Below, one piece after another: positions 2,202 through 18,188 of a stretch of 18,188 nucleotides of DNA. The position numbers and the translations under genes were made by a program. This stretch comes from a virus (lineage: Duplodnaviria > Heunggongvirae > Uroviricota > Caudoviricetes). The notes under the pieces are model-generated. The model saw nothing but the letters and a program-made list of their open reading frames with translations. It did not search any database and was not told where the DNA came from. Location: IMG/VR virus record IMGVR_UViG_2671181094_000006; one strand, given 5' to 3'. Position 1 is the stretch's first letter, and every line of letters begins with the position of its first letter.

Positions 2202-2789
2202 TTAATCGGTATCGTCGGCCAGGGCATACAGCAACGAAGGGATCACTCTCCGCATGGCTGTTTCTTCGGTTTCATCGCTCATGAGAGTCAGGGTGTAATC
2301 CCGGCACTCGTAAATCACATCATATGCAGACAGGCCGAACGCGCCGCCCGCAATGATCTGCCCAATTTCAACATCTGGCGTTTCAACAATCGACAGCCGG
2401 TAGCCGCCGAACGTCACAGGAGGGTTATAAGGCCCTTCGCTTACAAACAGCTCTACGGCCTTTGCAGCAACCTGGGCTCGTTCGTCCGGGTCCACCCCGG
2501 ACACCTTACCGGCACCTGACACCATGATGCGCTTAATCTCCGCAACACTCATTTCCACCAGCGTATACCCCTGCACCTCACCAGCTGGAGCAGGCTTGGT
2601 TTTACCCCTGGCATTCTTCGTACGCGGGTCACTGGCGCTGCGGTATCGTGCCAGATAAGTATCACAGGCCTCCTGGTCAATCTTCCCGTCAACCCGCGCC
2701 GGAAATCCTTCATGACTCTCCCAGTTATACAGTGCCTGCCGGCTCATTCCGGCATGTTTTGCGTACTGGCTGACGCTCATTAGTGACAT
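2202..2789 (-). CDS. Nu1-like (small-terminase-type) HTH protein; candidate packaging-redirection (Rpp-like) or small terminase subunit
   Basis: The ATG at 2789 has AGGAG 7 nt upstream. The N-terminus MSVSQYAKHAGMSRQALYNW...FP resembles the lambda Nu1 N-terminal winged HTH (KKQLADIFGASIRTIQNWQEQGMP). A repeat field lies immediately upstream, as cosB does for Nu1. Confidence 0.7.
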   Translation of the reverse strand: MSLMSVSQYAKHAGMSRQALYNWESHEGFPARVDGKIDQEACDTYLARYRSASDPRTKNARGKTKPAPAGEVQGYTLVEMSVAEIKRIMVSGAGKVSGVDPDERAQVAAKAVELFVSEGPYNPPVTFGGYRLSIVETPDVEIGQIIAGGAFGLSAYDVIYECRDYTLTLMSDETEETAMRRVIPSLLYALADDTD

Positions 2790-2826
2790 AATTTTTCTCC
2801 TGCCTCATTGTCACCGGCTGGCCAGT

Positions 2827-3033
2827 GTGTCAACCCGCCGGCGGGAAACTGTCAATCAAACGTCAAGGGATCAACCGCTTGACACTTTTTTCTGTCAACT
2901 TGACACTTTTCGGGCTGAAAGTGTCAATCAAACTGTCAATCAAAACTTTCACGAATTCCCCTGCATCACGCGCCGCCTCTGGACCTTAACAACCTGACAA
3001 CAAAAAAGTGTCAAGTGTAAAGTGTCAATCAAA
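2827..3033 (-). repeat. Repeat field upstream of the Nu1-like gene; candidate cosB-like binding sites or a promoter cluster
   Basis: Four exact same-orientation copies of TGTCAATCAAA lie at 2850, 2922, 2934 and 3023. Extra TGTCAA copies lie at 2828, 2893 and 3009. Inverted TTGACA copies lie at 2879 and 2900. A TGTCAAcTTGACA palindrome spans 2893-2905. A perfect 12-bp palindrome CCCGCCGGCGGG spans 2834-2845. Confidence 0.55.
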
Positions 3034-3137
3034 TTGAAAACCTGCAGCTACAAAAACACTGCGGCGCGCAATGCCCGTGCCTTACAAAAGTCTCAGGAAG
3101 GACCCATTTTTTCTGAGGGCCATTCCATAGTTATCAC

Positions 3138-3563
3138 TTAATGAACTTCCGGCATCACAGGCCATTCAATATCTGGGGCATCATCAGGGTTAACACGACT
3201 GAGCAGAACGGAGTATTTTTCCCAGTGTTCCAGTCGCGTTTTTTCATCCAAGGTAGCCATTCCGTATTTCACAGCACGCGCTAAAGGGACGATAACGTCC
3301 TCAGCCTTTGTACGTTGCCGCTCTTTTTCAGCCCCAGCCAGCCTGGATAACTGTGCTTTGGTCTGTGGAGGTACATCGACCCACGAGGGCAAGCCATCAG
3401 CCCCTACCCCCCTTTGCTTACCTTCTGGTGGAACCCTGGTGAACTCGTGAAAAACGTTATCACTGACTGCTATAAGGTCCGCTGGTAGAGAATTGTTGTC
3501 CCGATAAGCTGGTAATAATTCATCAGGGTAAAAACACGCCGTTGACGCACTAAAATGATACAT
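3138..3563 (-). CDS. Tail fibre assembly chaperone (Tfa family)
   Basis: The start MYHFSASTACFYP is typical of Tfa proteins. The C-terminus HWEKYSVLLSRVNPDDAPDIEWPVMP matches the conserved Tfa tail (W.KYRVLLNRVD...APDIEWP). The start lies 2 nt after the fibre gene stop. Confidence 0.85.
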   Translation of the reverse strand: MYHFSASTACFYPDELLPAYRDNNSLPADLIAVSDNVFHEFTRVPPEGKQRGVGADGLPSWVDVPPQTKAQLSRLAGAEKERQRTKAEDVIVPLARAVKYGMATLDEKTRLEHWEKYSVLLSRVNPDDAPDIEWPVMPEVH

Positions 3564-3565
3564 GA

Positions 3566-4099
3566 CTATTCCCCTATAGCTAACCATCCAAAATTATCTG
3601 CATTACCCGAACTGCCGCTGATCCAGCCATATGCACGGAAACCGGAATTGGAATCATTGGTTACGGACACGTAACGATTTCCATCTGCGTACTTCGTAGC
3701 AACAATAGCAATAGCCCGCTTAGGAAAAGGTATCGGATACTGAACATTACCTGATGGTGAATTAATAGTGGCAGTTCCCATTTGAACAATAATATTTTTC
3801 TTTTCACCTGATGGTGTTCGGGTAGGAATAATACAGTAACCCTGTGAAGTAAGGGCACCTACGATGGGTTCAGATAGAAGGGCGGTGATCCTCAACTCAT
3901 CAATAACTTCGTTTAACTGACCATCATTTTCAGGCTCAAGCTGGCGGCCAGAACCCTCTACCACGCCCACCATCTCACGCTGCCAGGTATTAAAAATATC
4001 GGCAACAAGAATTGTTGGTGATACCCCATTAGCAACATTACCTTGTGTAAATTCCCCATTACTATCAGCAGTATCAGTGACTGAACTTATCTTACGCAT
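3566..4099 (-). CDS. Short tail fibre / receptor-binding tip protein (177 aa)
   Basis: The N-terminal motif FTQGNVANGVSPTILVADIFNTWQREMVGVVEGSG..L.....QL resembles the conserved tail-fibre motif (T...A.WLN..QEEL.NVI...G). The C-terminal GYCIIP...IIVQMG...VQYPIPFP...FGWLAIGE resembles gp53-like tail-fibre C-terminal domains. A Tfa gene follows directly. Confidence 0.8.
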   Translation of the reverse strand: MRKISSVTDTADSNGEFTQGNVANGVSPTILVADIFNTWQREMVGVVEGSGRQLEPENDGQLNEVIDELRITALLSEPIVGALTSQGYCIIPTRTPSGEKKNIIVQMGTATINSPSGNVQYPIPFPKRAIAIVATKYADGNRYVSVTNDSNSGFRAYGWISGSSGNADNFGWLAIGE

Positions 4100-5383: not shown

Positions 5384-5528
5384 GGCATGCTTTCCTCTGG
5401 TTGGCGATTATCCGGCGGAGCCACATGAGTTTTTTCTTCTGCTTTCTGAACAGGCGCTCTCTCTTCGCCGCGGCAAACCATTCCGGTAACACCCAGCTTG
5501 TTTTGCTCCTGCACTCCTGGCACGGCAT
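5328..5528 (-). CDS. Small basic protein (66 aa), hypothetical
   Basis: Its ATG overlaps the stop of the upstream RHH-like gene in TAATG (5526-5530), which suggests translational coupling. It is very Arg/Lys-rich. It overlaps the annotated start of the next gene by 56 nt, so one of the two starts is uncertain. Confidence 0.5.
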   Translation of the reverse strand: MPCQECRSKTSWVLPEWFAAAKRERLFRKQKKKLMWLRRIIANQRKACHAVNDVTRMGAKSVRYER

Positions 5529-5704
5529 TACTTTTTATTTGTTTCATGTCTACTAATCCCCTGACGTAAAAGGTGACGCGCCAGCTCCTGAATACTCGGG
5601 GCTGCGCCTACGGTAGAACGTCGGCATTCATCCTCACGGAGGCGCTGTAAACCTTCGAGAATCGGCTGATCAACAAGAATCGGCTTTTTGTTAGTGACTG
5701 CCAT
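5528..5704 (-). CDS. Small ribbon-helix-helix-like protein (58 aa), first gene of the tail-fibre operon; not in the supplied ORF track
   Basis: Hand translation gives MAVTNKKPILVDQPILEGLQRLREDECRRSTVGAAPSIQELARHLLRQGISRHETNKK. A strong SD, AGGAGG, lies 7 nt upstream of the ATG at 5704. The strand-helix-helix pattern is typical of CopG/Arc proteins. Confidence 0.6.
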   Translation of the reverse strand: MAVTNKKPILVDQPILEGLQRLREDECRRSTVGAAPSIQELARHLLRQGISRHETNKK

Positions 5705-5929: not shown

Positions 5930-6289
5930 ATGAGAATGACCAGCCGCAAAAAAGAGATACTCAGCTACTTTGAACCGGATAACCGCGATTGGGTAACAGG
6001 TGAGATTGGTGCGCCGCCGTTCGATGTGTCGGGTGTGGCCTACCTGCTTCATGGCATGGGATCATTCGGTAAACGCCACCAGCTCGAATCAACCCGGCGT
6101 ACGCTCGAAAGCATGGTTGCCGGTGGACTGCTTGAGCGAATGACAGTGTATGAATCCCGTCAGGTACGGCGCGGCGGTGAAACCAGCGCAACAGTCGTGC
6201 GCTACGGTTTACCGGGACAGTGTGCCGTTGTGCGAGATAGTGGCGGCGCTGATAACGCAATACCAGGTGAATACATGCGGGTCAGTTAA
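5930..6289 (+). CDS. Winged-helix DNA-binding protein, module B (119 aa); paralog of 1548-1907
   Basis: MRMTSRKKEILSYFEPDNRDWVTGEIGAPPFDVSGVAYLLHG... The ~40-bp leader and operator (TGTATGATAG..CACAATAAGGAA) are conserved with copy A. Confidence 0.8.
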   Translation: MRMTSRKKEILSYFEPDNRDWVTGEIGAPPFDVSGVAYLLHGMGSFGKRHQLESTRRTLESMVAGGLLERMTVYESRQVRRGGETSATVVRYGLPGQCAVVRDSGGADNAIPGEYMRVS

Positions 6290-7130: not shown

Positions 7131-7337
7131 ACGCCATACCCTTTGGAAGGATGAAACACGCCCGGATTAAATTTTATTTTTCGCGGGTATAAACATTCGA
7201 TGAGGCGGGCAGTGCTTAAGGCTCAGGATTGCAGAGATTTGGCCTCCCCCTCCCGGTGATAGTTTATTGCTTGATGTGGACGGCTTGCTATATTGGCGGA
7301 GAATGCAAATTGTCGCAGAAGTCTATCCCGCTCCCTG

Positions 7338-7363
7338 ACGCCCCGTGCGGGCGTTTTGCTTTT
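7338..7363 (+). terminator. Plus-strand-oriented intrinsic terminator
   Basis: The stem is ACGCCC (7338-7343) / GGGCGT (7349-7354) with a 5-nt loop, followed by TTTTGCTTTT. The U-tract is present only on the plus strand, although the adjacent coding genes are on the minus strand. Confidence 0.45.
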
Positions 7364-7973
7364 ACAAAGTCAGGCCAATGCCTCTGGCTGCTTTCCCCGT
7401 CTTACGCTCAATCACGCCCGTGATTCTATCTACTACCGGACTGAATGCCTGCCAGTAAGCCATCTCCATTGCTGACAACTCTGCCCGCTTCCTGTCAAAC
7501 GTAGCCCAGCGCATCCCCTTTGGTTTTGGGAACATGCGAATATCATTAAACAGGTTATTGGTAAGGTCATTGTTGCCCCATATCGCGCATCGCTGCTGGC
7601 GTATCTTCATTCGCATCCTGTCCAGTCTGTCGGCGCTCTGGCTTTTATAGTGGAGTTTCCAGCATCCCCGGCAGCCAATATCTTTTTTGCCGATATACAG
7701 CTTCGCTACCCGCTTTATGCAGTGGGGACAGACGTACCATTCCCGCACACCATACCCGGCTTGTGTGGTCGTGGTTCTGATTGCCCGTGTAACGCCGTTG
7801 ATTGTCATGGCGTAGCTGTCGGCTTGCCGGAAGGTATAAAACGTTCCGCTTTCGGTCTGGGTATAAAGCTGCGTCCCCGGTTCGGCGTCCGCCAGCCTGC
7901 TACGCATGTGCGCAAGGAATGGCAACCCTATGCGGGGCAGGTCGGTGGTATAGCTGCGTGTTCTGCCTCTCAC
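7362..7973 (-). CDS. Zinc-ribbon protein (203 aa), hypothetical
   Basis: The GTG start at 7973 has AGGAGG 7 nt upstream. The motif is CPHC-X15-CRGC (WYVCPHCIKRVAKLYIGKKDIGCRGCW). Confidence 0.8.
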   Translation of the reverse strand: MRGRTRSYTTDLPRIGLPFLAHMRSRLADAEPGTQLYTQTESGTFYTFRQADSYAMTINGVTRAIRTTTTQAGYGVREWYVCPHCIKRVAKLYIGKKDIGCRGCWKLHYKSQSADRLDRMRMKIRQQRCAIWGNNDLTNNLFNDIRMFPKPKGMRWATFDRKRAELSAMEMAYWQAFSPVVDRITGVIERKTGKAARGIGLTL

Positions 7974-7993
7974 TGGCTGGCCTCCTGTGAATT

Positions 7994-8405
7994 ACTGCGA
8001 ATCAAACTGCGAATGCGCAAAAATGAATACGAAATAATATGCGTATTTTACTGTAAATTGCGCACCAGTTTTGCAATTTCACATCAATAAAGCCAGTAAC
8101 CGCGCGGGTTGAGGATGGTTTGCGCATTGGTATCCGTTTCGTTTTGCGCAGATTTTTTGTGAACTGCGCAAATCGCATTGCCGCCGTTAGAATCCGTCAG
8201 ATGGTACGCACGCTGAATGCGCAGTTTTGCCGCGTACCTGACTGCGTACTGCGAACCAGTGGCGCGAACCAGAATATTATGGACAACCTAAATCACGTTC
8301 TGGCTTCCAGCCCGCGACTGGCGCGGTTCTCTCTTCATATCGGCTTTGAGTCTGTCCAGTACAGTCCAGAATTTACAGCCGTTTTAGTGCGAACATTACT
8401 GCGAA
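7994..8405. repeat. Dense array of TGCG(A/C)A motifs filling the perC-like / zinc-ribbon intergenic region
   Basis: Eleven exact copies start at 7996, 8008, 8014, 8059, 8121, 8145, 8165, 8218, 8250, 8388 and 8400. One-mismatch variants start at 8040, 8205, 8243 and 8263. Six copies extend to ACTGCG.A. Paired units 12 bp apart sit at both ends of the array. GCGAACCAG is repeated at 8251 and 8264. Confidence 0.65.
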
Positions 8406-8707
8406 CAGTCGCCCCCGATGGTGGCCTGTCGTTGCTTCTTGCCGCCATTTAACCGGAAGGCGTTACCGTTCGGTTGCGCTATCCCCATGCGGTGTTGCGT
8501 TTCGGTAACAGCTTTATGCAGATCGCCAAAGTCCTCAACCTTCACGGGCGGGCGCTTCACGTTCTCCAGACACGTTTCACGGCGGCGCTTTATCCATTCC
8601 CGATCATCGTCCTCGGTGCATAACAGCATGACTTCCATCCATCGCGCGGCGGCGCGTCGGTACAGCCCTTTTGCTTCCAGATCCTCGGCTTTACTGTCGT
8701 TTACCAT
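8396..8707 (-). CDS. PerC-family-like transcriptional activator (103 aa)
   Basis: From memory, the N-terminus MVNDSKAEDLEAKGLYRRAAARWMEVM resembles PerC/Pch-family prophage proteins. GAGGGGGA SD. The family call was not verified by search. Confidence 0.65.
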   Translation of the reverse strand: MVNDSKAEDLEAKGLYRRAAARWMEVMLLCTEDDDREWIKRRRETCLENVKRPPVKVEDFGDLHKAVTETQHRMGIAQPNGNAFRLNGGKKQRQATIGGDCSQ

Positions 8708-8718
8708 GTGTATCCCCC

Positions 8719-9180
8719 TCAGAATGGATCTTCATCATCAAACGGCGGGCGCTGGTCAAAATCATCAGGGGTGTTATATAGCTCCCATCCCGGCGCGGAT
8801 TGTGTTGCGTGGCCTCTGCTGGCTCCGCTTGCTTTGACTGATTCGGCCCGCTTCCCGCCAGGGCGTACCGTTCTGGCGCTGATTACACTGTCGGCTACTA
8901 CCTGATAACCTTGCTGTATACCGCCATCCTTGCCCGTCCACTGATTGACCTGCATCGCTCCGGCAACACTGACTAAATCGCCTTTAACGTGTCCTGCCAG
9001 TGCGTCGGCCTGTTTGCCGAATGCCACCACGCCCAGCCAGAAAGTAACCTCTCCGCCCTCTGCTGCATGGCATGGCAGTGCCACCGCTAAACGCCCCATT
9101 GCCATGCTTGTACCGTTTGCTGTGGTGCGGGTCTGCGGGTCTGCGACTAAACGCCCGTAGGCTGATATCTGTGCTGTCAT
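8719..9180 (-). CDS. ssb: Single-stranded DNA-binding protein
   Basis: OB-fold-like N-terminus (GRLVADPQTRTTANGTSMAMGRLAV...). Gly/Pro-rich linker. Acidic C-terminal tip FDDEDPF, comparable to DDDIPF of E. coli SSB. Confidence 0.88.
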   Translation of the reverse strand: MTAQISAYGRLVADPQTRTTANGTSMAMGRLAVALPCHAAEGGEVTFWLGVVAFGKQADALAGHVKGDLVSVAGAMQVNQWTGKDGGIQQGYQVVADSVISARTVRPGGKRAESVKASGASRGHATQSAPGWELYNTPDDFDQRPPFDDEDPF

Positions 9181-9284
9181 TTTGCGAATACCTCGAATTA
9201 TTAGTTTTGCTAATGAAGATTACCCGGCTCCGTCTTATTGTGGGACACCTTCGCCAGATTTTTTTGTATATAAACAAAAAAGTT

Positions 9285-9541
9285 GGTGGTTCAGGTGGTT
9301 CAGTGGTTCAGTACCCCTCTAGGCCGCGCCATCTCTGGGTTTTGCTGAACCACCTTTTAAATTTATCTGGTGGTTCAGTCGCCCTTCTTGGTGGTTCACT
9401 GCCAGCCAGTGAAAATAATCCGTTTCTCTCTGGTGGTTCAAAATACCCGTTTGGTGGTTCAGTGGTGGTTCACTTTCTTACAAAAAAACATTATAAATCA
9501 ATAACAATTACTTACTGAACCACTGAACCACCTGAACCACC
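9285..9541. repeat. Iteron-type replication origin of the island
   Basis: There are twelve copies of (T)GGTGGTTCA. A triple tandem at 9285-9311 and its exact 27-bp reverse complement at 9515-9541 bracket five direct copies (9369, 9390, 9432, 9453, 9464) and one inverted copy (9346). An AT-rich tract spans 9476-9514. The field lies between the primase-helicase and ssb genes. Confidence 0.8.
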
Positions 9542-9567
9542 ACAAAAAACCTCGCACGTGAAAAAGA

Positions 9568-12345
9568 TTATTGCTCTGGCTGGCTTTCCTCCCCATCCGG
9601 CAGGAATTGCAAAACGTAAACGTTAATCTGCCTCCCCTGAATGCGCGGGCTTTTCCTCTGAAATTTTTTTCCGTCTGCCGAAGGGGTAAGCATCCCCGAT
9701 TCTTTCAGGACGCGGGCCACCTGCTGCCTGTTAAACCCCTTAGCAATATCCTTATCGAAAGTGTCGGGGAACGTGTAAAACGTTATCGGTGAATCGTCAT
9801 GATTTCCGCGCTGCCTGTATCCAGCCAGATTATGAATCGGCAGGCTGGCGGGGTCGTAAGGCAGCGGCGCGAATCGACTCAGGCCATAGGCATTTAAAAA
9901 TGCCTCCGCCTGCTCGATGATCTGCTGGTGCTCTTTGTTCCCCGTGCCGAACTCTTTTAGCCATGCGTTATAGGCGTGCTGTATCGCATCCCGGCACGTT
10001 TGAGCATCCCAGCCAGTAACCACGCCACCCATCAGTAAAGCGGCCTCCAGAATGGCAAATCTTGCCCCTACACGGTGAACCTGTTCCCCATAGTCGGCAG
10101 GAATTAGACTGCGCCAGCGGGCCTCACACTCACGAACGGCATCAATCGCCTGTTGCTGGTGGTCTGAAAGCCATCTGATCCACTCCCTCCCGGCAGCGCC
10201 ATGATGGTTCTGGTAAGCGTCTTTCAGCGCGTCGGCGTGGTCTCTCCCTGTCTGGTACTCATGAAAGCGCACCGCCTTACTCAGCGGGATATTCAGCAGT
10301 CGCACCAGTTGCCCCGCTTTTGTCTTGCGTCCTGCGGTGGAGATGAACGTTTCTAAATCCATTTCCCCGGTGCTGATTGCCACGGTGCGCCAGCGTTTCA
10401 GATCCCGGTTGCCTCCTTCCTTTGCTCCCTGCAATTTCCCCACGCCGTTAAACAGGGCATAGGCAGACTGAGCAACGCTTATCGGGTCTGCGCCCTGTCC
10501 GACTTCATCCAGTGGCATCAGCCCGTCATTGTGGGCGGCGGCCTCGTTTATCAGCCCCAGCGCCGTTCCGTACCACGTCAGGCGCAAGGCATCAGGGTTG
10601 CCATAAAGACTGCTCGCCACGTTCTGCGTGGTTGTTTTCCCGGCGCTCGATTGCTCGTAAAAATGAATCCCGAAGCCGTCACGCTCCGCCAGCCCGATTA
10701 ACGGTGCTGCAAGTGCGGCGGCAATGCCTGTCATCATCGCGTAGTTACCGTATGCCAGACGCGCAACACTCTTACGCCAGCTCTCTGAGGTTCCCGCCAC
10801 GGTGTACCCGGCAGCGGCAGAACTGCGGCCACTGAATAAAACGGGTTGTGCAGGTGCGCCGATAATCTCCCCGTCCGGCATGATGTATGCCCCGCACTGC
10901 CAGCCAGTAGCGTGAGCAACACGCCACAATTCACGTGAGCCGCTACGCTGTAACCAGTCAGCCAGAATCGCCCGCAAGCTGCTTTTGGTGGTGACGTTAA
11001 CCCCGCCCGCTTTCAGGGTGCGCCAGCCTTCGCGCTCCCCGATATCAGCCAGGGGGATAGCCGCTGTTGTCGGTATGCCTGCGCCAAAGGCCAGCCAGCG
11101 TAATATCAGATACTGATCCTTGTCGTCCCGCCCGGTGCCGATAACGTCCATCGGTGAGGCCAGCCAGCTTTCATTGTTGATAATCTCGCCGCTTTCCTTG
11201 TCCACTTTAGGCGTGATCCAGTAAACGCCATCTTTGCGGCTCTCAATGCGGGGTTTTAGCGGGTCTTTCTCTGGCTGGTCAGTTTTACCGCCCTCAATGG
11301 CCTGTAGTTGTGGTTTCACGCATTCCCCCTGCGGCTGGTACATCGAATCATTAAACGCAGCCGTAGCGACTTCCAGCCCGTGTTGCTGGTGGTAGTCGTT
11401 CCAGTCAGCTTTGCTGTCAGTCGGTGGCAGCGATACCCAGCCAGCCACGGATAAAGCCGCTTTCTCTGCGGCCTCCTTCCCGATGTTGGTGGCTCCGGTT
11501 TCGGAGGCTGCTGTAGGGTGGTCGTTATCTGCGGCGATAATAATTTGCGACTGCGGGTGTTTCCGGCGCATTACTCCGGCAACGTGGATCAGGTTCCCGG
11601 CGTCAATTGCCGCCACTGTGAGCGCGTCAGGCCGCATCTGGTGAACGGACAGGGCGGTAGCCAGCCCCTCGGCAATCACGACGCTTTGAGGCCGTTCCAG
11701 CGCGTTTACGGCGTAATATGCCCCGCGCTTTGCCGATCCCTTAATGAGTCGCTTTTCTCCCTGCGGGGTGATGGTCTGCGCGGCTGTGACTGCGCCGGAT
11801 TCATCCACCAGCTCCAGCAATAACGAACCATCGGGCATAAGCGGGTATTTAAACCCGGTCAGCCCTTTTGATTGCAGGTACTCAGATTCTCCCTGTATGG
11901 ATCTCAGGCGCATTCCGGTATACAGACGGGCAAACGTAGCCCTTCGCTGATCTGCGTCCTCTGCTGCCTGTTTCTGGCGCTCCTGCTCACGCTGCTGGCG
12001 GTCTGCGGCTAACTGCCTCTGTCTCTGGCTGGCAGCGTCTGGTGCTGATTCTGCGGCCCGGTAATCAATACCCAGCACATCAGCGGCAAGCTGTGCCGCC
12101 TCCGTGGTGTCGCAGTTGTTCACCTTCTTAATCAGGTCTAAGCCATCGCCCGCGCCGCACTGGTTGCAGATAAAGCTGCCGCGCCCGTTGTCGTCGAATC
12201 TGAAACGGTCTTTCCCACCACATGCAGGGCAGGGGGCATGGCGGCGCGATGAATCAGGAACGTCGATAGACAATCCGGCCAGCACATAAGGCCATCGCCC
12301 TGCTGCGGCGCTGGTCACTTCGCGGATAAGGTCGATATTACGCAT
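9568..12345 (-). CDS. Primase-helicase replication protein (zinc-binding domain + Toprim + P-loop NTPase), P4-alpha / PICI Pri-Rep type
   Basis: 925 aa. Zinc motif CPACGGKDRFRF...CNQCG. Toprim residues VVIAEGLATALSV and IIIAADNDH. Walker A SSAGKTT and Walker B LMPLDEV. GGGAGGT SD. Confidence 0.95.
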   Translation of the reverse strand: MRNIDLIREVTSAAAGRWPYVLAGLSIDVPDSSRRHAPCPACGGKDRFRFDDNGRGSFICNQCGAGDGLDLIKKVNNCDTTEAAQLAADVLGIDYRAAESAPDAASQRQRQLAADRQQREQERQKQAAEDADQRRATFARLYTGMRLRSIQGESEYLQSKGLTGFKYPLMPDGSLLLELVDESGAVTAAQTITPQGEKRLIKGSAKRGAYYAVNALERPQSVVIAEGLATALSVHQMRPDALTVAAIDAGNLIHVAGVMRRKHPQSQIIIAADNDHPTAASETGATNIGKEAAEKAALSVAGWVSLPPTDSKADWNDYHQQHGLEVATAAFNDSMYQPQGECVKPQLQAIEGGKTDQPEKDPLKPRIESRKDGVYWITPKVDKESGEIINNESWLASPMDVIGTGRDDKDQYLILRWLAFGAGIPTTAAIPLADIGEREGWRTLKAGGVNVTTKSSLRAILADWLQRSGSRELWRVAHATGWQCGAYIMPDGEIIGAPAQPVLFSGRSSAAAGYTVAGTSESWRKSVARLAYGNYAMMTGIAAALAAPLIGLAERDGFGIHFYEQSSAGKTTTQNVASSLYGNPDALRLTWYGTALGLINEAAAHNDGLMPLDEVGQGADPISVAQSAYALFNGVGKLQGAKEGGNRDLKRWRTVAISTGEMDLETFISTAGRKTKAGQLVRLLNIPLSKAVRFHEYQTGRDHADALKDAYQNHHGAAGREWIRWLSDHQQQAIDAVRECEARWRSLIPADYGEQVHRVGARFAILEAALLMGGVVTGWDAQTCRDAIQHAYNAWLKEFGTGNKEHQQIIEQAEAFLNAYGLSRFAPLPYDPASLPIHNLAGYRQRGNHDDSPITFYTFPDTFDKDIAKGFNRQQVARVLKESGMLTPSADGKKFQRKSPRIQGRQINVYVLQFLPDGEESQPEQ

Positions 12346-16869: not shown

Positions 16870-16961
16870 ATCGTCACCCTCAACGCCCCTAAATAACTTG
16901 CGGGCCAGGCGGGTAGGGTTTCCCGCTTTTCGGTTGGCCGACCTAGACCCGCAATATCAGT

Positions 16962-18188
16962 TTAATCTCTATTCGCTACAGGTAACAGAACCACATTTTT
17001 ATGATTACCCGCAAGAAGTTCTAAACGTTCATGCCATTTGTTCAGCGCATCCAGCTTCTCCGGCAAGTACAGGCTACGGTTATATATAGCCATGACGCCC
17101 GGTAGAGCATGACCCAGCAGCAACTCTACAATATGCGGTGCTATGCCCATATTGTTTAACCCCGTGGAGAACGTGCGCCGCAGATCGTGAAGTGTCCACG
17201 GCTCGTTATGATGGAAATCTTTAAAAAGCCGTCGCCCTTTCAAAGATACAGCTTGCCGGGTGCGCTCTTCTCCCAGCAGCAGGCCTGTTTTACCCGTCTC
17301 GCGTTTTAACTCTTCCAGCCACGGGCGTATAGCTTCAGGGATTGATCTCACGATTTTCTCGCGGGTTTTGCTGTGCTCTTTCGGGACTGTCCAAATCCAC
17401 GAGGTAAAATCCCACTCCGACCATCGAGAGAGGCGAACTTCCATCGTTCGAGCGCCAAACAGCACCAGCATTTTGAGAAGACGTGAATAATACGGCTGCT
17501 GATCATCGCTGTCTGTGCAGCGCCATACATCGGCCAGCTCGCTATCTGACAATACGCGGTCACGTTGACCGGATGGCTGGCCTACATCCTGAATGGTGAG
17601 AAAGGCTAGAGCATCACTGGCGGCATAGCGGCGAACCTTGCAGAAGCGTAACGCCTGTTTAGAAATCTGGAACATGCGGCCGGCGGTCATGGGTTTGGTC
17701 AGATTTATTTCATCAAAACAGGCCACCCAATGACGGGTTTCACATCTGGTGAGGGGATAACGACCAAGGCGCGGGTAAATATGCTTGCGTAGCTGTGCCC
17801 TTACCAGCTCCTCATCGCTGCGCTTTCTCCTGGCGTAGTTCACCAGCCAGTATTCGAGAGCATCCTGTACTGTCACAGGTTTAAGCGTTTCTTCGGTGCT
17901 CAGTTCAAGCTCTGTTTTTGGATCAAGACCACCAGCCAGCCACTGGCGACACTTTTCCCGCTTTTCTCTCGCCGCTTTTAGCGACAAATCCGGGTAACGG
18001 CCAAGCGTTAAACGTTCGAGTTTGCTACCCCTTCCGCCCAATCGGTAAGCGAACACCCAGCTAACGTTACCTTGCTTCGAAACCTTAATGCTCAGTCCTT
18101 CACCATCGGCAATCATGATCGGTGCTTCACGCTCAGAACCCTGCAGCGCTTTTAGCTTTTTGTCGCTCAGTTTGTTTGTACCAGCCAT
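16962..18188 (-). CDS. P4-type tyrosine integrase (full length; the start codon is the last three bases of the window)
   Basis: N-terminal arm-type domain (LSDKKLKAL...GEGLSIKVSKQGNVSWVFAYRLGG...LGRYPDLSLKAAREK). Catalytic residues ARTMEVRLSRW, HDLRRT, LLGH, and Y in AIYNRS. Confidence 0.95.
   Translation of the reverse strand: MAGTNKLSDKKLKALQGSEREAPIMIADGEGLSIKVSKQGNVSWVFAYRLGGRGSKLERLTLGRYPDLSLKAAREKREKCRQWLAGGLDPKTELELSTEETLKPVTVQDALEYWLVNYARRKRSDEELVRAQLRKHIYPRLGRYPLTRCETRHWVACFDEINLTKPMTAGRMFQISKQALRFCKVRRYAASDALAFLTIQDVGQPSGQRDRVLSDSELADVWRCTDSDDQQPYYSRLLKMLVLFGARTMEVRLSRWSEWDFTSWIWTVPKEHSKTREKIVRSIPEAIRPWLEELKRETGKTGLLLGEERTRQAVSLKGRRLFKDFHHNEPWTLHDLRRTFSTGLNNMGIAPHIVELLLGHALPGVMAIYNRSLYLPEKLDALNKWHERLELLAGNHKNVVLLPVANRD

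Follow-up and report, generated by a model that had tools for sequence, protein, structure and literature searches.

A hexamer cluster around a promoter-like core upstream of a zinc-ribbon gene: a predicted cis-regulatory region in a satellite of the phage-inducible chromosomal island type

The 18,188-bp IMG/VR record IMGVR_UViG_2671181094_000006, hereafter the window, is a satellite of the Gram-negative phage-inducible chromosomal island (PICI) type in which every long open reading frame (ORF) lies on the minus strand. A 422-bp gap (7974-8395, minus strand) separates its PerC-family gene (8396-8707, minus strand; Pfam PF06069, E 2e-29) from a gene encoding a 203-residue zinc-ribbon protein (7362-7973, minus strand; GTG start at 7971-7973). 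We propose, with a probability of about one half, that this gap is a composite cis-regulatory region in which a cluster of operator sites surrounds a promoter of the 203-residue gene devoid of a -35 element. The short word crowded into the gap most likely binds a protein, and we treat its copies as predicted operator sites. The proposal builds on the anatomy of the gap, the enrichment of the word, the conservation of the module among related islands and a mosaic junction element, all of which are observed.

An oriented word and its recurrence in related islands

A preliminary description of the region 7975-8405 had counted 11 exact copies of the hexamer TGCG[AC]A. Our recount agrees and places their starts at 7996, 8008, 8014, 8059, 8121, 8145, 8165, 8218, 8250, 8388 and 8400, that is, 11 copies in 431 bp compared with 20 in the whole window. 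The excess is very large, as 5000 dinucleotide-preserving shuffles of the region yielded 1.11 ± 1.01 copies with a maximum of 5, but the chance expectation is about one and not well under one, as had been stated. TTCGCA, which had been listed among the motif strings of the region, has no occurrence on its plus strand. The hexamer itself is real and was too narrowly defined: a broader oriented word, T-N-CGCA(GT), in which N is T, G or A, lies mainly on the gene-sense (minus) strand, where T-N-CGCA is usually continued by GT(A/T)A, and T-N-CGCA accounts for 14 copies between 7996 and 8405.

Longer forms of the word are concentrated in the same way. ACTGCG[AC]A occurs five times in the window, always inside the region, and a further copy lies on the opposite strand at 8218. 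The octamer TNCGCAGT is present eight times in the window, a number reached in 0 of 200 shuffles; seven copies fall inside the region, six of them on the minus strand. Doublets with a 12-bp spacing were correctly located at both ends of the array (7996/8008 and 8388/8400), both in direct orientation and flanked by ATTACTGCGAA, which has exactly two occurrences (7991 and 8395). The hexamer at 8400 and part of ATTACTGCGAA fall within the last codons and the stop of the PerC-family gene. The duplication reported at 8251 and 8264 is that of GCGAACCAG, and the hexamers occupy several unrelated sequence contexts, beyond one duplicated unit. The array word is unrelated to the iterons of the replication origin (ori, 9284-9542; at least 12 copies of GGTGGTTCAG), as had been noted.

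We compared the window with related islands and contigs, labeled by L numbers such as L001 and L137. Over the arrays of related loci, CGCAGT outnumbers ACTGCG by 105 to 18, and start-to-start spacings of 12-13 bp are the commonest (63 pairs), with 7-8 bp second (49 pairs); these strand and spacing counts are not independent because the loci are related. An enrichment scan of related islands, which the preliminary description had suggested, revealed that the cluster recurs beside the same gene: within 226 bp around a 16-mer of the promoter-like core, the hexamers exceed the background of the respective lineage in eight of ten lineages (Poisson p < 1e-3), with 1 to 11 copies depending on the lineage. 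Serratia has eight hexamers where 0.12 are expected, and the IMG/VR lineages L058 and L102 are also enriched. The word is enriched where the surroundings have diverged past alignment (Serratia, L058, L102 and L137).

The 16-mer has 108 matches in IMG/VR, and among the 80 matches listed only satellite-like contigs also carry hexamers. Neither the region nor the core with its leader had a BLAST match, even at E <= 10, in 50,697 phage records, and a promoter common to a helper phage was rejected on this ground.

Promoter-like core, leader, spacer and junction element

Comparison with relatives divides the gap into three parts, which are the junction element, a spacer and the upstream region of the 203-residue gene. 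E. coli L015 has a minimal version of only 250 bp. The 16-mer core, the junction element (about one third of the region) and the cargo hotspot in which it resides were absent from the preliminary description.

The upstream region (7975-8064, minus strand) consists of a promoter-like core and a leader. The core is formed by the 16-mer TATTATTTCGTATTCA on the sense strand (8024-8039, minus strand), which we interpret as a -10-like TATTAT together with the start region, and it corresponds to a stretch of 33% G+C at 8000-8100. Seventeen loci from Kluyvera, E. coli, Enterobacter, Shimwellia, Buttiauxella, Serratia and Rosenbergiella share the 16-mer without a single change, as do three more IMG/VR lineages, and it remains invariant although the identity of the encoded protein falls to 51-70% and the flanking sequence has diverged too far to align. 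It is flanked by TACGCA at 8040-8045 and contains the near-hexamer TTCGTA, and one hexamer follows 3-4 nt downstream. On the upstream side, TGCGCA at 8059-8064 (minus strand) lies 19 nt from TATTAT, and in most lineages a hexamer is found 7-21 nt upstream of TATTAT. A consensus scan of 7300-8800 detected no sigma-70 promoter with -35 and -10 hexamers 16-18 bp apart; TATTAT is present, but the best upstream hexamer is this TGCGCA at 19 nt. The lack of a consensus sigma-70 promoter is consistent with a factor-dependent promoter. The idea that the hexamer serves as a -35 element of fixed position, or as a site for a class II activator, was rejected given its variable distance to TATTAT.

The leader array (7996-8019, minus strand) reads TGCGCA-TTCGCAGTTTGA-TTCGCAGTAA on the sense strand and precedes the Shine-Dalgarno sequence AGGAGG of the 203-residue gene (7981-7986, minus strand). 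Tandem leader units are arranged in 9-12-bp steps that reach the Shine-Dalgarno sequence, and their number varies from zero (L007 and L009) through one (L027), three (window) and four (L004) to six (L003). In most relatives the last leader hexamer abuts the Shine-Dalgarno sequence (TTCGCAGGAGG), and a 21-bp unit, TTCGCAGTTAATGCGCAGTAA, differs in copy number among close relatives. The spacer (8065-8242) holds five exact hexamers, or six with the TACGCA variant at 8205, together with the conserved block TGCGCAAAACGAAACGG on the sense strand (8134-8150, minus strand). This block is kept in Serratia L028 and appears as GCGCGAAAAACGAAACGG upstream of the distant homologue in L137.

The junction element was identified by nhmmer and BLAST and has a core of about 150 bp (8243-8395, minus strand) that extends to approximately 8195 and 8405. 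Its sense strand runs AAATTCTGGACTGTACTGGAC ... CGCGCCAGTCGCGGGCTGGAAGCCAG ... GTGATTTAGGTTGTCCATAATATTCTGGTTCGCGCCACTGGTTCGCAGTACGCAG, with the T-N-CGCA word at both ends. The 5' edge is formed by the hexamer doublet TTCGCAGTAATGTTCGCA on the sense strand (8388-8405, minus strand; 12-bp spacing), which overlaps the PerC stop and is conserved at the 3' end of the PerC gene in relatives, and a single TTCGCA ends an unrelated 116-residue gene in L014 and L015. A distal extension (8195-8242, minus strand) contains a GGTACGC ... GCGTACC inverted repeat around AAAACTGCGCATTCAG, with hexamers at 8205 and 8218, and the nhmmer match in the window spans 8195-8400. Across 29 loci and the window, nhmmer retrieved 30 copies of the element (28 distinct), one or two per locus. 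By BLAST, the window element matches both L001 copies, and the E. coli genomes that match the region do so at a median of two places (1-4 per genome).

Copies of the element follow the PerC gene, or the 116-residue gene in its place, and each inserted cargo gene. The cargo genes that precede copies are a 125-residue gene in E. coli, a 999-residue tape-measure-like gene and a 595-residue SLT-domain gene. Dickeya is devoid of the junction element; at the corresponding site, its GmrSD-like cassette follows a cluster of hexamers. The 125-residue cassette is absent from the window, whose single element is a mosaic of the two copy types of L001 (E. coli), with 16 consecutive B-specific positions enclosed by A-type sequence on both sides. 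This clean A/B/A arrangement is direct evidence of recombination between element copies. In L002 and L016, apparent deletions associated with the loss of the zinc-ribbon gene end in or near element copies or in a neighboring gene.

The interval past pri, ori, ssb and perC matches the PICI accessory hotspot and is a hotspot of cargo insertion in relatives. The literature describes an accessory or immune hotspot downstream of pri in PICIs (PMC11364771) and the general PICI layout (PMC6092414). Our interval shares with that hotspot its position after pri, ori, ssb and perC and, in relatives, the GmrSD-like, tape-measure-like, SLT-domain and other cargo (PMC11364771). In term searches of these papers, neither the repeated junction element nor the T-N-CGCA arrays nor the 16-mer came up, and a literature search found the 16-mer and repeat-unit strings in none of the indexed papers. 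As separate observations, the late region of relatives carries tape-measure-like and SLT-domain cargo, and the 125-residue cargo gene of L001 (9929-10306, minus strand) is flanked by two junction elements and has homologues in L002, L014, L016 and L017. Residues 9-33 of its product (the GAPLGNTNAVKHG region) give a weak match to the NCBIfam TerS model NF040601 (E 6.6e-4; 19 bits, cut-off 120).

The region is non-coding, as originally described. The only ORF on the same strand (58 residues, 8002-8178, minus strand) is not conserved, as L004, a close relative, lacks an ATG at the corresponding site, and a 110-residue ORF on the plus strand is antisense to PerC; both were rejected as genes. At gathering thresholds, Rfam 15 matched the whole window solely at the int-alpA RNA (16886-16953), and a permissive scan of 7800-8600 returned one chance-level match (E 9.6). 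RNAalifold applied to 22 copies of the junction element yielded weak, scattered pairs on both strands (-12.2 and -11.7 kcal/mol per ~150 nt), and six leaders fold no better than shuffled sequences (z-scores -0.75 to +0.69). Neither a conserved small ORF nor a structured RNA, the two alternatives raised in the preliminary description, was thus found to explain the region. Two specific candidates were rejected as well: an antisense RNA of the C4/CI type, which has no Rfam match, and a small RNA ending at a plus-strand hairpin (8312-8326), whose T-run is missing in most copies.

Predicted binding, candidate proteins and rival explanations

The preliminary description had viewed the region as a multi-site landing pad for a DNA-binding protein. 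A non-coding, recurrent and strand-biased array with preferred spacings fits this view, but the roles suggested for PerC and for a crr-like region are unsupported. We envision that a sequence-specific DNA-binding protein would occupy the T-N-CGCA sites, cooperatively as suggested by the 7-bp and 12-13-bp spacings and the shared orientation, and that their occupancy would control the transcription both of the zinc-ribbon gene and of whichever cargo cassette is inserted. In the simplest case, a weak promoter would be occluded, up to the time of island induction, by protein bound at sites that flank the -10 element (TACGCA, TATTAT and TTCGTA in succession), occupy the -35 position and extend over the first 45 nt of the leader. 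Activation is also possible, and we infer both the binding and its sign from the anatomy of the gap. Recombination between copies of the junction element would lead to the gain or loss of cassettes.

A bolder extension, which we regard as speculative and on the whole improbable, is that the element and array constitute a portable 'plug-in' control cassette. Each hotspot gene would receive its own copy, arbitrary cargo (defence, tail or lysis-related) would be wired to a single island regulator, possibly the 203-residue protein, and cassettes would be captured or lost without an integrase. Gram-negative PICIs are known to be activated by AlpA, with their cargo placed in a hotspot past pri; to our knowledge, the control of PICI genes beyond the replication module and the exchange of cargo have not been described so far. 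The invariant 16-mer, the oriented 6-8-bp word and the 150-bp junction element provide handles that can be mutated, and they are tied to a conserved gene that carries no functional annotation and belongs to a very large unannotated protein family. Identifying the reader of the word would point to a regulator of satellite late and accessory genes and would indicate whether cargo, including defence genes, is constitutive or dependent on helper infection. In this view, one PICI lineage possesses a module that combines cis-regulation with cassette junctions.

The best candidate binder, by association only, is the 203-residue zinc-ribbon protein acting on its own promoter. The array precedes its gene wherever this gene is present, with almost no hexamers in two lineages. 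The cysteines of the protein are arranged as CPHC-X15-CRGC and its N-terminus is conserved (RxRTRSYTxxLP). Its predicted structure (pLDDT 82) combines a β-rich domain with a C4 ribbon and, at the C-terminus, a long helix, with no informative match in the PDB. The protein matches no known family and is part of a large unannotated one with 8,754 cluster representatives. At the locus of a distant homologue (E 2e-39), 14 of the 16 core bases, a ACGAAACGG block and GCGCAA-type words are retained. PerC, put forward in the preliminary description, is disfavored as the binder because arrays persist in islands without a PerC gene (E. coli L013-L015 and L017, Serratia L028 and L029), and the 116-residue gene found in its place encodes an unrelated protein. 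A helper-phage or host protein is another possible binder.

Three further island-encoded proteins were rejected as binders. AlpA was set aside since one and the same array occurs with different AlpA types, and EcCICFT073 encodes AlpA but lacks an array. A 119-residue protein resembles a winged-helix protein by eye; the sequence upstream of its own gene carries another palindrome and is free of hexamers, and the protein is absent from Serratia. A ribbon-helix-helix-like protein of 58 residues also has no hexamers upstream and is absent from most islands.

Additional observations were made on these small genes. The 119-residue gene (5930-6289) and a 131-residue paralogue (1512-1907), also winged-helix-like by eye, both lie on the plus strand, opposite to all others, and their products match the same gene of relatives at ~90% and ~70% identity, respectively. 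They belong to a family of more than 500 members, all annotated 'hypothetical'. A TGTATGATAG motif precedes both paralogues and extends upstream of 5930 into the palindrome ATTGTATGATAGTGCTAT..ACAAT, and their homologue in L021 is divergent from about six (T)GCGTAC(C) repeats, most of which follow a T-run. The 58-residue ORF (5528-5704, minus strand) was assigned as ribbon-helix-helix-like by eye (KKPILVDQPILEGLQRL...SIQELARHLLRQG); a homologue directly follows the 203-residue gene in Serratia (L028, 7020-7193), and in Rosenbergiella a different ribbon-helix-helix-like gene of 70 residues lies just upstream of the promoter of the 203-residue gene (L027, 5603-5815).

Several observations weigh against the proposed regulatory region. 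Each island-encoded candidate binder is absent from some array-bearing island, including the 203-residue protein, whose gene is missing from L002, L005, L016 and L017, and the model of this protein displays no recognizable DNA-binding fold. The loss of the gene in L002 and L016 looks like deletion. Hexamer positions had been expected to outlast the spacer in homologous islands, and they are conserved no better than it: hexamer columns score 0.879 versus 0.878 for other columns among close relatives, and 34 of 66 hexamer columns versus 112 of 227 others are conserved between the window and Serratia. We interpret this equality as indicating either that sites turn over inside a maintained cluster or that part of the excess is mutational; the cluster alone, rather than the hexamer positions, is maintained. 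Moreover, the L007/L009 and L012 lineages keep the 16-mer with nearly no hexamers, the variable distance between hexamer and TATTAT argues against a fixed activator geometry, and the promoter of the 203-residue gene is assigned from sequence alone.

Among other explanations, the hexamers could form a pac-like packaging site, wrapped by a small-terminase-like or redirecting protein (the 203-residue protein, or the 125-residue protein in relatives) that would steer the helper terminase. We consider this unlikely. A packaging signal is needed, and the island is devoid of a lambda-type cosN, unlike EcCICFT073, which possesses cos sites but not an array; known pac and cosB sites are built of repeated short words such as the P1 pac hexamers and the lambda R sites. 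The arrays also adjoin candidate specificity genes, one of which, the 125-residue gene, encodes a GAPxGNxNAxKHG stretch with the weak NF040601 match. However, this TerS match covers 25 residues only and falls far below its cut-off, neither the sequence nor the fold of the 203-residue protein matches TerS or Rpp, and elsewhere in the window a TerS-like gene (2202-2789) is accompanied by a different repeat array of its own. The hexamer number also varies between lineages, and the hexamers hug the promoter-like core and the ribosome-binding site. The cosN-like sequence GGGCGGCGACCT has no match with three or fewer mismatches in 7975-8405 and 17 in the window versus 15.9 by chance; the cosN sequence of EcCICFT073 is plainly visible. 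A lambda-like cosN at the PerC 3' end (GGGGGCGAC) was rejected, with four mismatches to cosN, and hexamer clusters of the P1 pac type exist but the region contains 0 GATC. The PICI cosB elements recognized by Rpp-TerS are given as still undefined (PMC6739421). Recombination could instead be the main role, with the element and hexamers serving as cassette exchange sites and any effect on transcription being secondary, which we find rather unlikely. The cargo genes bracketed by the element differ from island to island, the element is present in 1-4 copies per E. coli genome, the window copy is a mosaic from which the cassette is missing, and the L002 and L016 deletions end in or beside copies. 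Yet 150 bp of homology suffices for general recombination and no dedicated site is needed. A conserved attC-type stem is lacking and no integron-type integrase lies nearby, the sole integrase of the window being the island's own at a distance of ~9 kb. Exchange sites would also leave unexplained the hexamers of the 16-mer and leader, which in Serratia and Rosenbergiella are present in the absence of an nhmmer match to the element.

The remaining explanations carry less weight. A gap with no dedicated function, in which slippage or duplication of short units in tolerant sequence produced the word excess, appears quite improbable: the variable 21-bp unit and the unremarkable conservation of hexamer positions agree with it, but the same word is enriched in lineages diverged past alignment, its orientation bias is strong and it occurs in unrelated contexts. 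Control at the RNA level is very unlikely. UGCG/CGCA hairpins in the leader would mask the ribosome-binding site or terminate transcription, or a small RNA would be encoded, and the contact between the last leader hexamer and the Shine-Dalgarno sequence accords with this. Two hexamers also form a weak terminator-like hairpin (8020-8007, minus strand), another such hairpin lies in the junction element (8312-8326, plus strand), and two stem substitutions are, by eye, compatible with G-U pairs. On the other hand, the Rfam, leader-folding and two-strand RNAalifold results described above provide no supported structure, the T-run after the plus-strand hairpin is absent from most copies, and hexamers also occur ahead of the -10-like element and in either orientation. 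A second cis-acting site for replication or partition, similar to P4 crr or to a centromere, had been suggested in the preliminary description and seems scarcely probable. It would account for the doublets at both ends and the stretch of 33% G+C, and the gap upstream of the homologous gene in the distant L136 is origin-like, with inverted 12-bp doublets around an AT-rich center. A second copy of the origin is nevertheless unlikely because the array word differs from the GGTGGTTCAG iterons, whereas P4 crr repeats the iterons of its ori, and in Serratia the iterons change to GTTGGTTCA and the array word does not. Furthermore, the window ORFs that were scanned against Pfam yielded no partition protein, the AT-rich stretch coincides with the conserved promoter-like core, and the two doublets of the window are direct and not inverted.

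Returning to the operator cluster that we favor, its closest counterparts are phased operator arrays such as the P2 Cox boxes (at Pe/Pc and at P4 PLL), the omega heptads of pSM19035 and the MetJ boxes. These likewise comprise many 6-9-bp copies, mostly in one orientation and 7 bp or roughly one turn of the helix apart, which cover a promoter and its flanks in numbers that differ between promoters. They differ in that T-N-CGCA(GT) matches none of their words and that the main spacing here is 12-13 bp, not 7-8 or 10-11 bp. The 7-8-bp class that would resemble omega heptads ranks second here (49 versus 63 pairs), genes that are ribbon-helix-helix-like by eye were seen only in the window, L001, L027 and L028, and the one at 5528-5704 is absent from most array islands. 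The P4 promoters Psid and PLL and the P2 late promoters are activated by the zinc-finger proteins Ogr/Delta at TGT-N12-ACA. Similar to the gap, they pair a satellite -10 without a usable -35 with adjacent late or virion-related cargo and an encoded small zinc-binding protein, but the region has no TGT-N12-ACA dyad and no homology was detected, the cysteines of Ogr being spaced C-X2-C-X22-C-X4-C in ~72 residues versus C-X2-C-X15-C-X2-C in 203 residues here.

The P1 pac hexamers are TGATCA/G and lambda cosB is made of R sites. Such repeated-word packaging sites resemble the gap in their hexamer clusters, in doublets at both ends over a few hundred bp and in an adjoining candidate specificity gene, and differ from it in that the region has no GATC, no cosN-like sequence and no Rpp/TerS homology and that the array is centered on a promoter-like core. 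In T4-type phages, mobile regulatory cassettes made of a promoter and a stem-loop (PeSL) mediate gene shuffling. They too are short conserved non-coding units repeated between genes, and recombination between copies alters gene content, but the element described here is ~150 bp long and has neither a conserved stem-loop nor a consensus promoter. For the word, the core and the protein, there is no match among the phased operator arrays and the Ogr/Delta-dependent late promoters as they are generally known.

Island context and further observations

The window harbors the features by which PICIs are recognized: int, an alpA-type regulator (assigned by eye), pri-rep with an iteron ori, and no full virion or lysis set. 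The integrase gene (16962-18188) is separated from a 279-residue ORF by the int-alpA RNA (Rfam RF02996; 16886-16953, minus strand; 62.6 bits, E 3.6e-11), and the N-terminus of this ORF resembles, by eye, an AlpA/excisionase-type helix-turn-helix. A 925-residue primase (9568-12345) with Zn_Ribbon_Prim, Toprim and DUF927 domains and an SSB gene (8719-9180) lie on either side of the iteron origin. The nearest relatives are islands in Kluyvera intermedia, whose PerC is 100% identical, and in Enterobacter, Shimwellia and Atlantibacter, and E. coli islands located between yicC and dinD are also related.

Beyond the 203-residue gene follow a 61-residue gene, a PRiA4_ORF3 gene and the oppositely oriented 119-residue gene, and then the tail-fibre, tail-fibre-assembly and TerS-like genes. 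Just past the stop of the 203-residue gene, a terminator-like hairpin followed by TTTTGCTTTT (7337-7355, plus strand) has an orientation that would stop transcription of the plus strand, antisense to the gene. Positions 3138-4099 of the satellite (minus strand) hold genes for a tail fibre (Gp53-like_C, E 1.7e-10) and for tail-fibre assembly (Caudo_TAP, E 1.3e-30). The TerS-like gene encodes 195 residues (2202-2789, minus strand), the first 65 of which match phrog_57 'terminase small subunit' (E 8e-8). The array upstream of it (2790-3060) comprises five direct AAA(G/C)TGTCAA(TCAAA) repeats, with pairs 12 and 14 bp apart, and two inverted CTTGACACTTTT copies, and represents a candidate pac site or operator.

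The origin-like gap of L136 (3526-3736) lies between a DnaB-like helicase gene and the homologue of the 203-residue gene in a distant integrative element. It contains TGTCACCACT twice, 12 bp apart, an AT-rich center of ~165 bp and an inverted doublet made of TGGTGACACT twice, also 12 bp apart.

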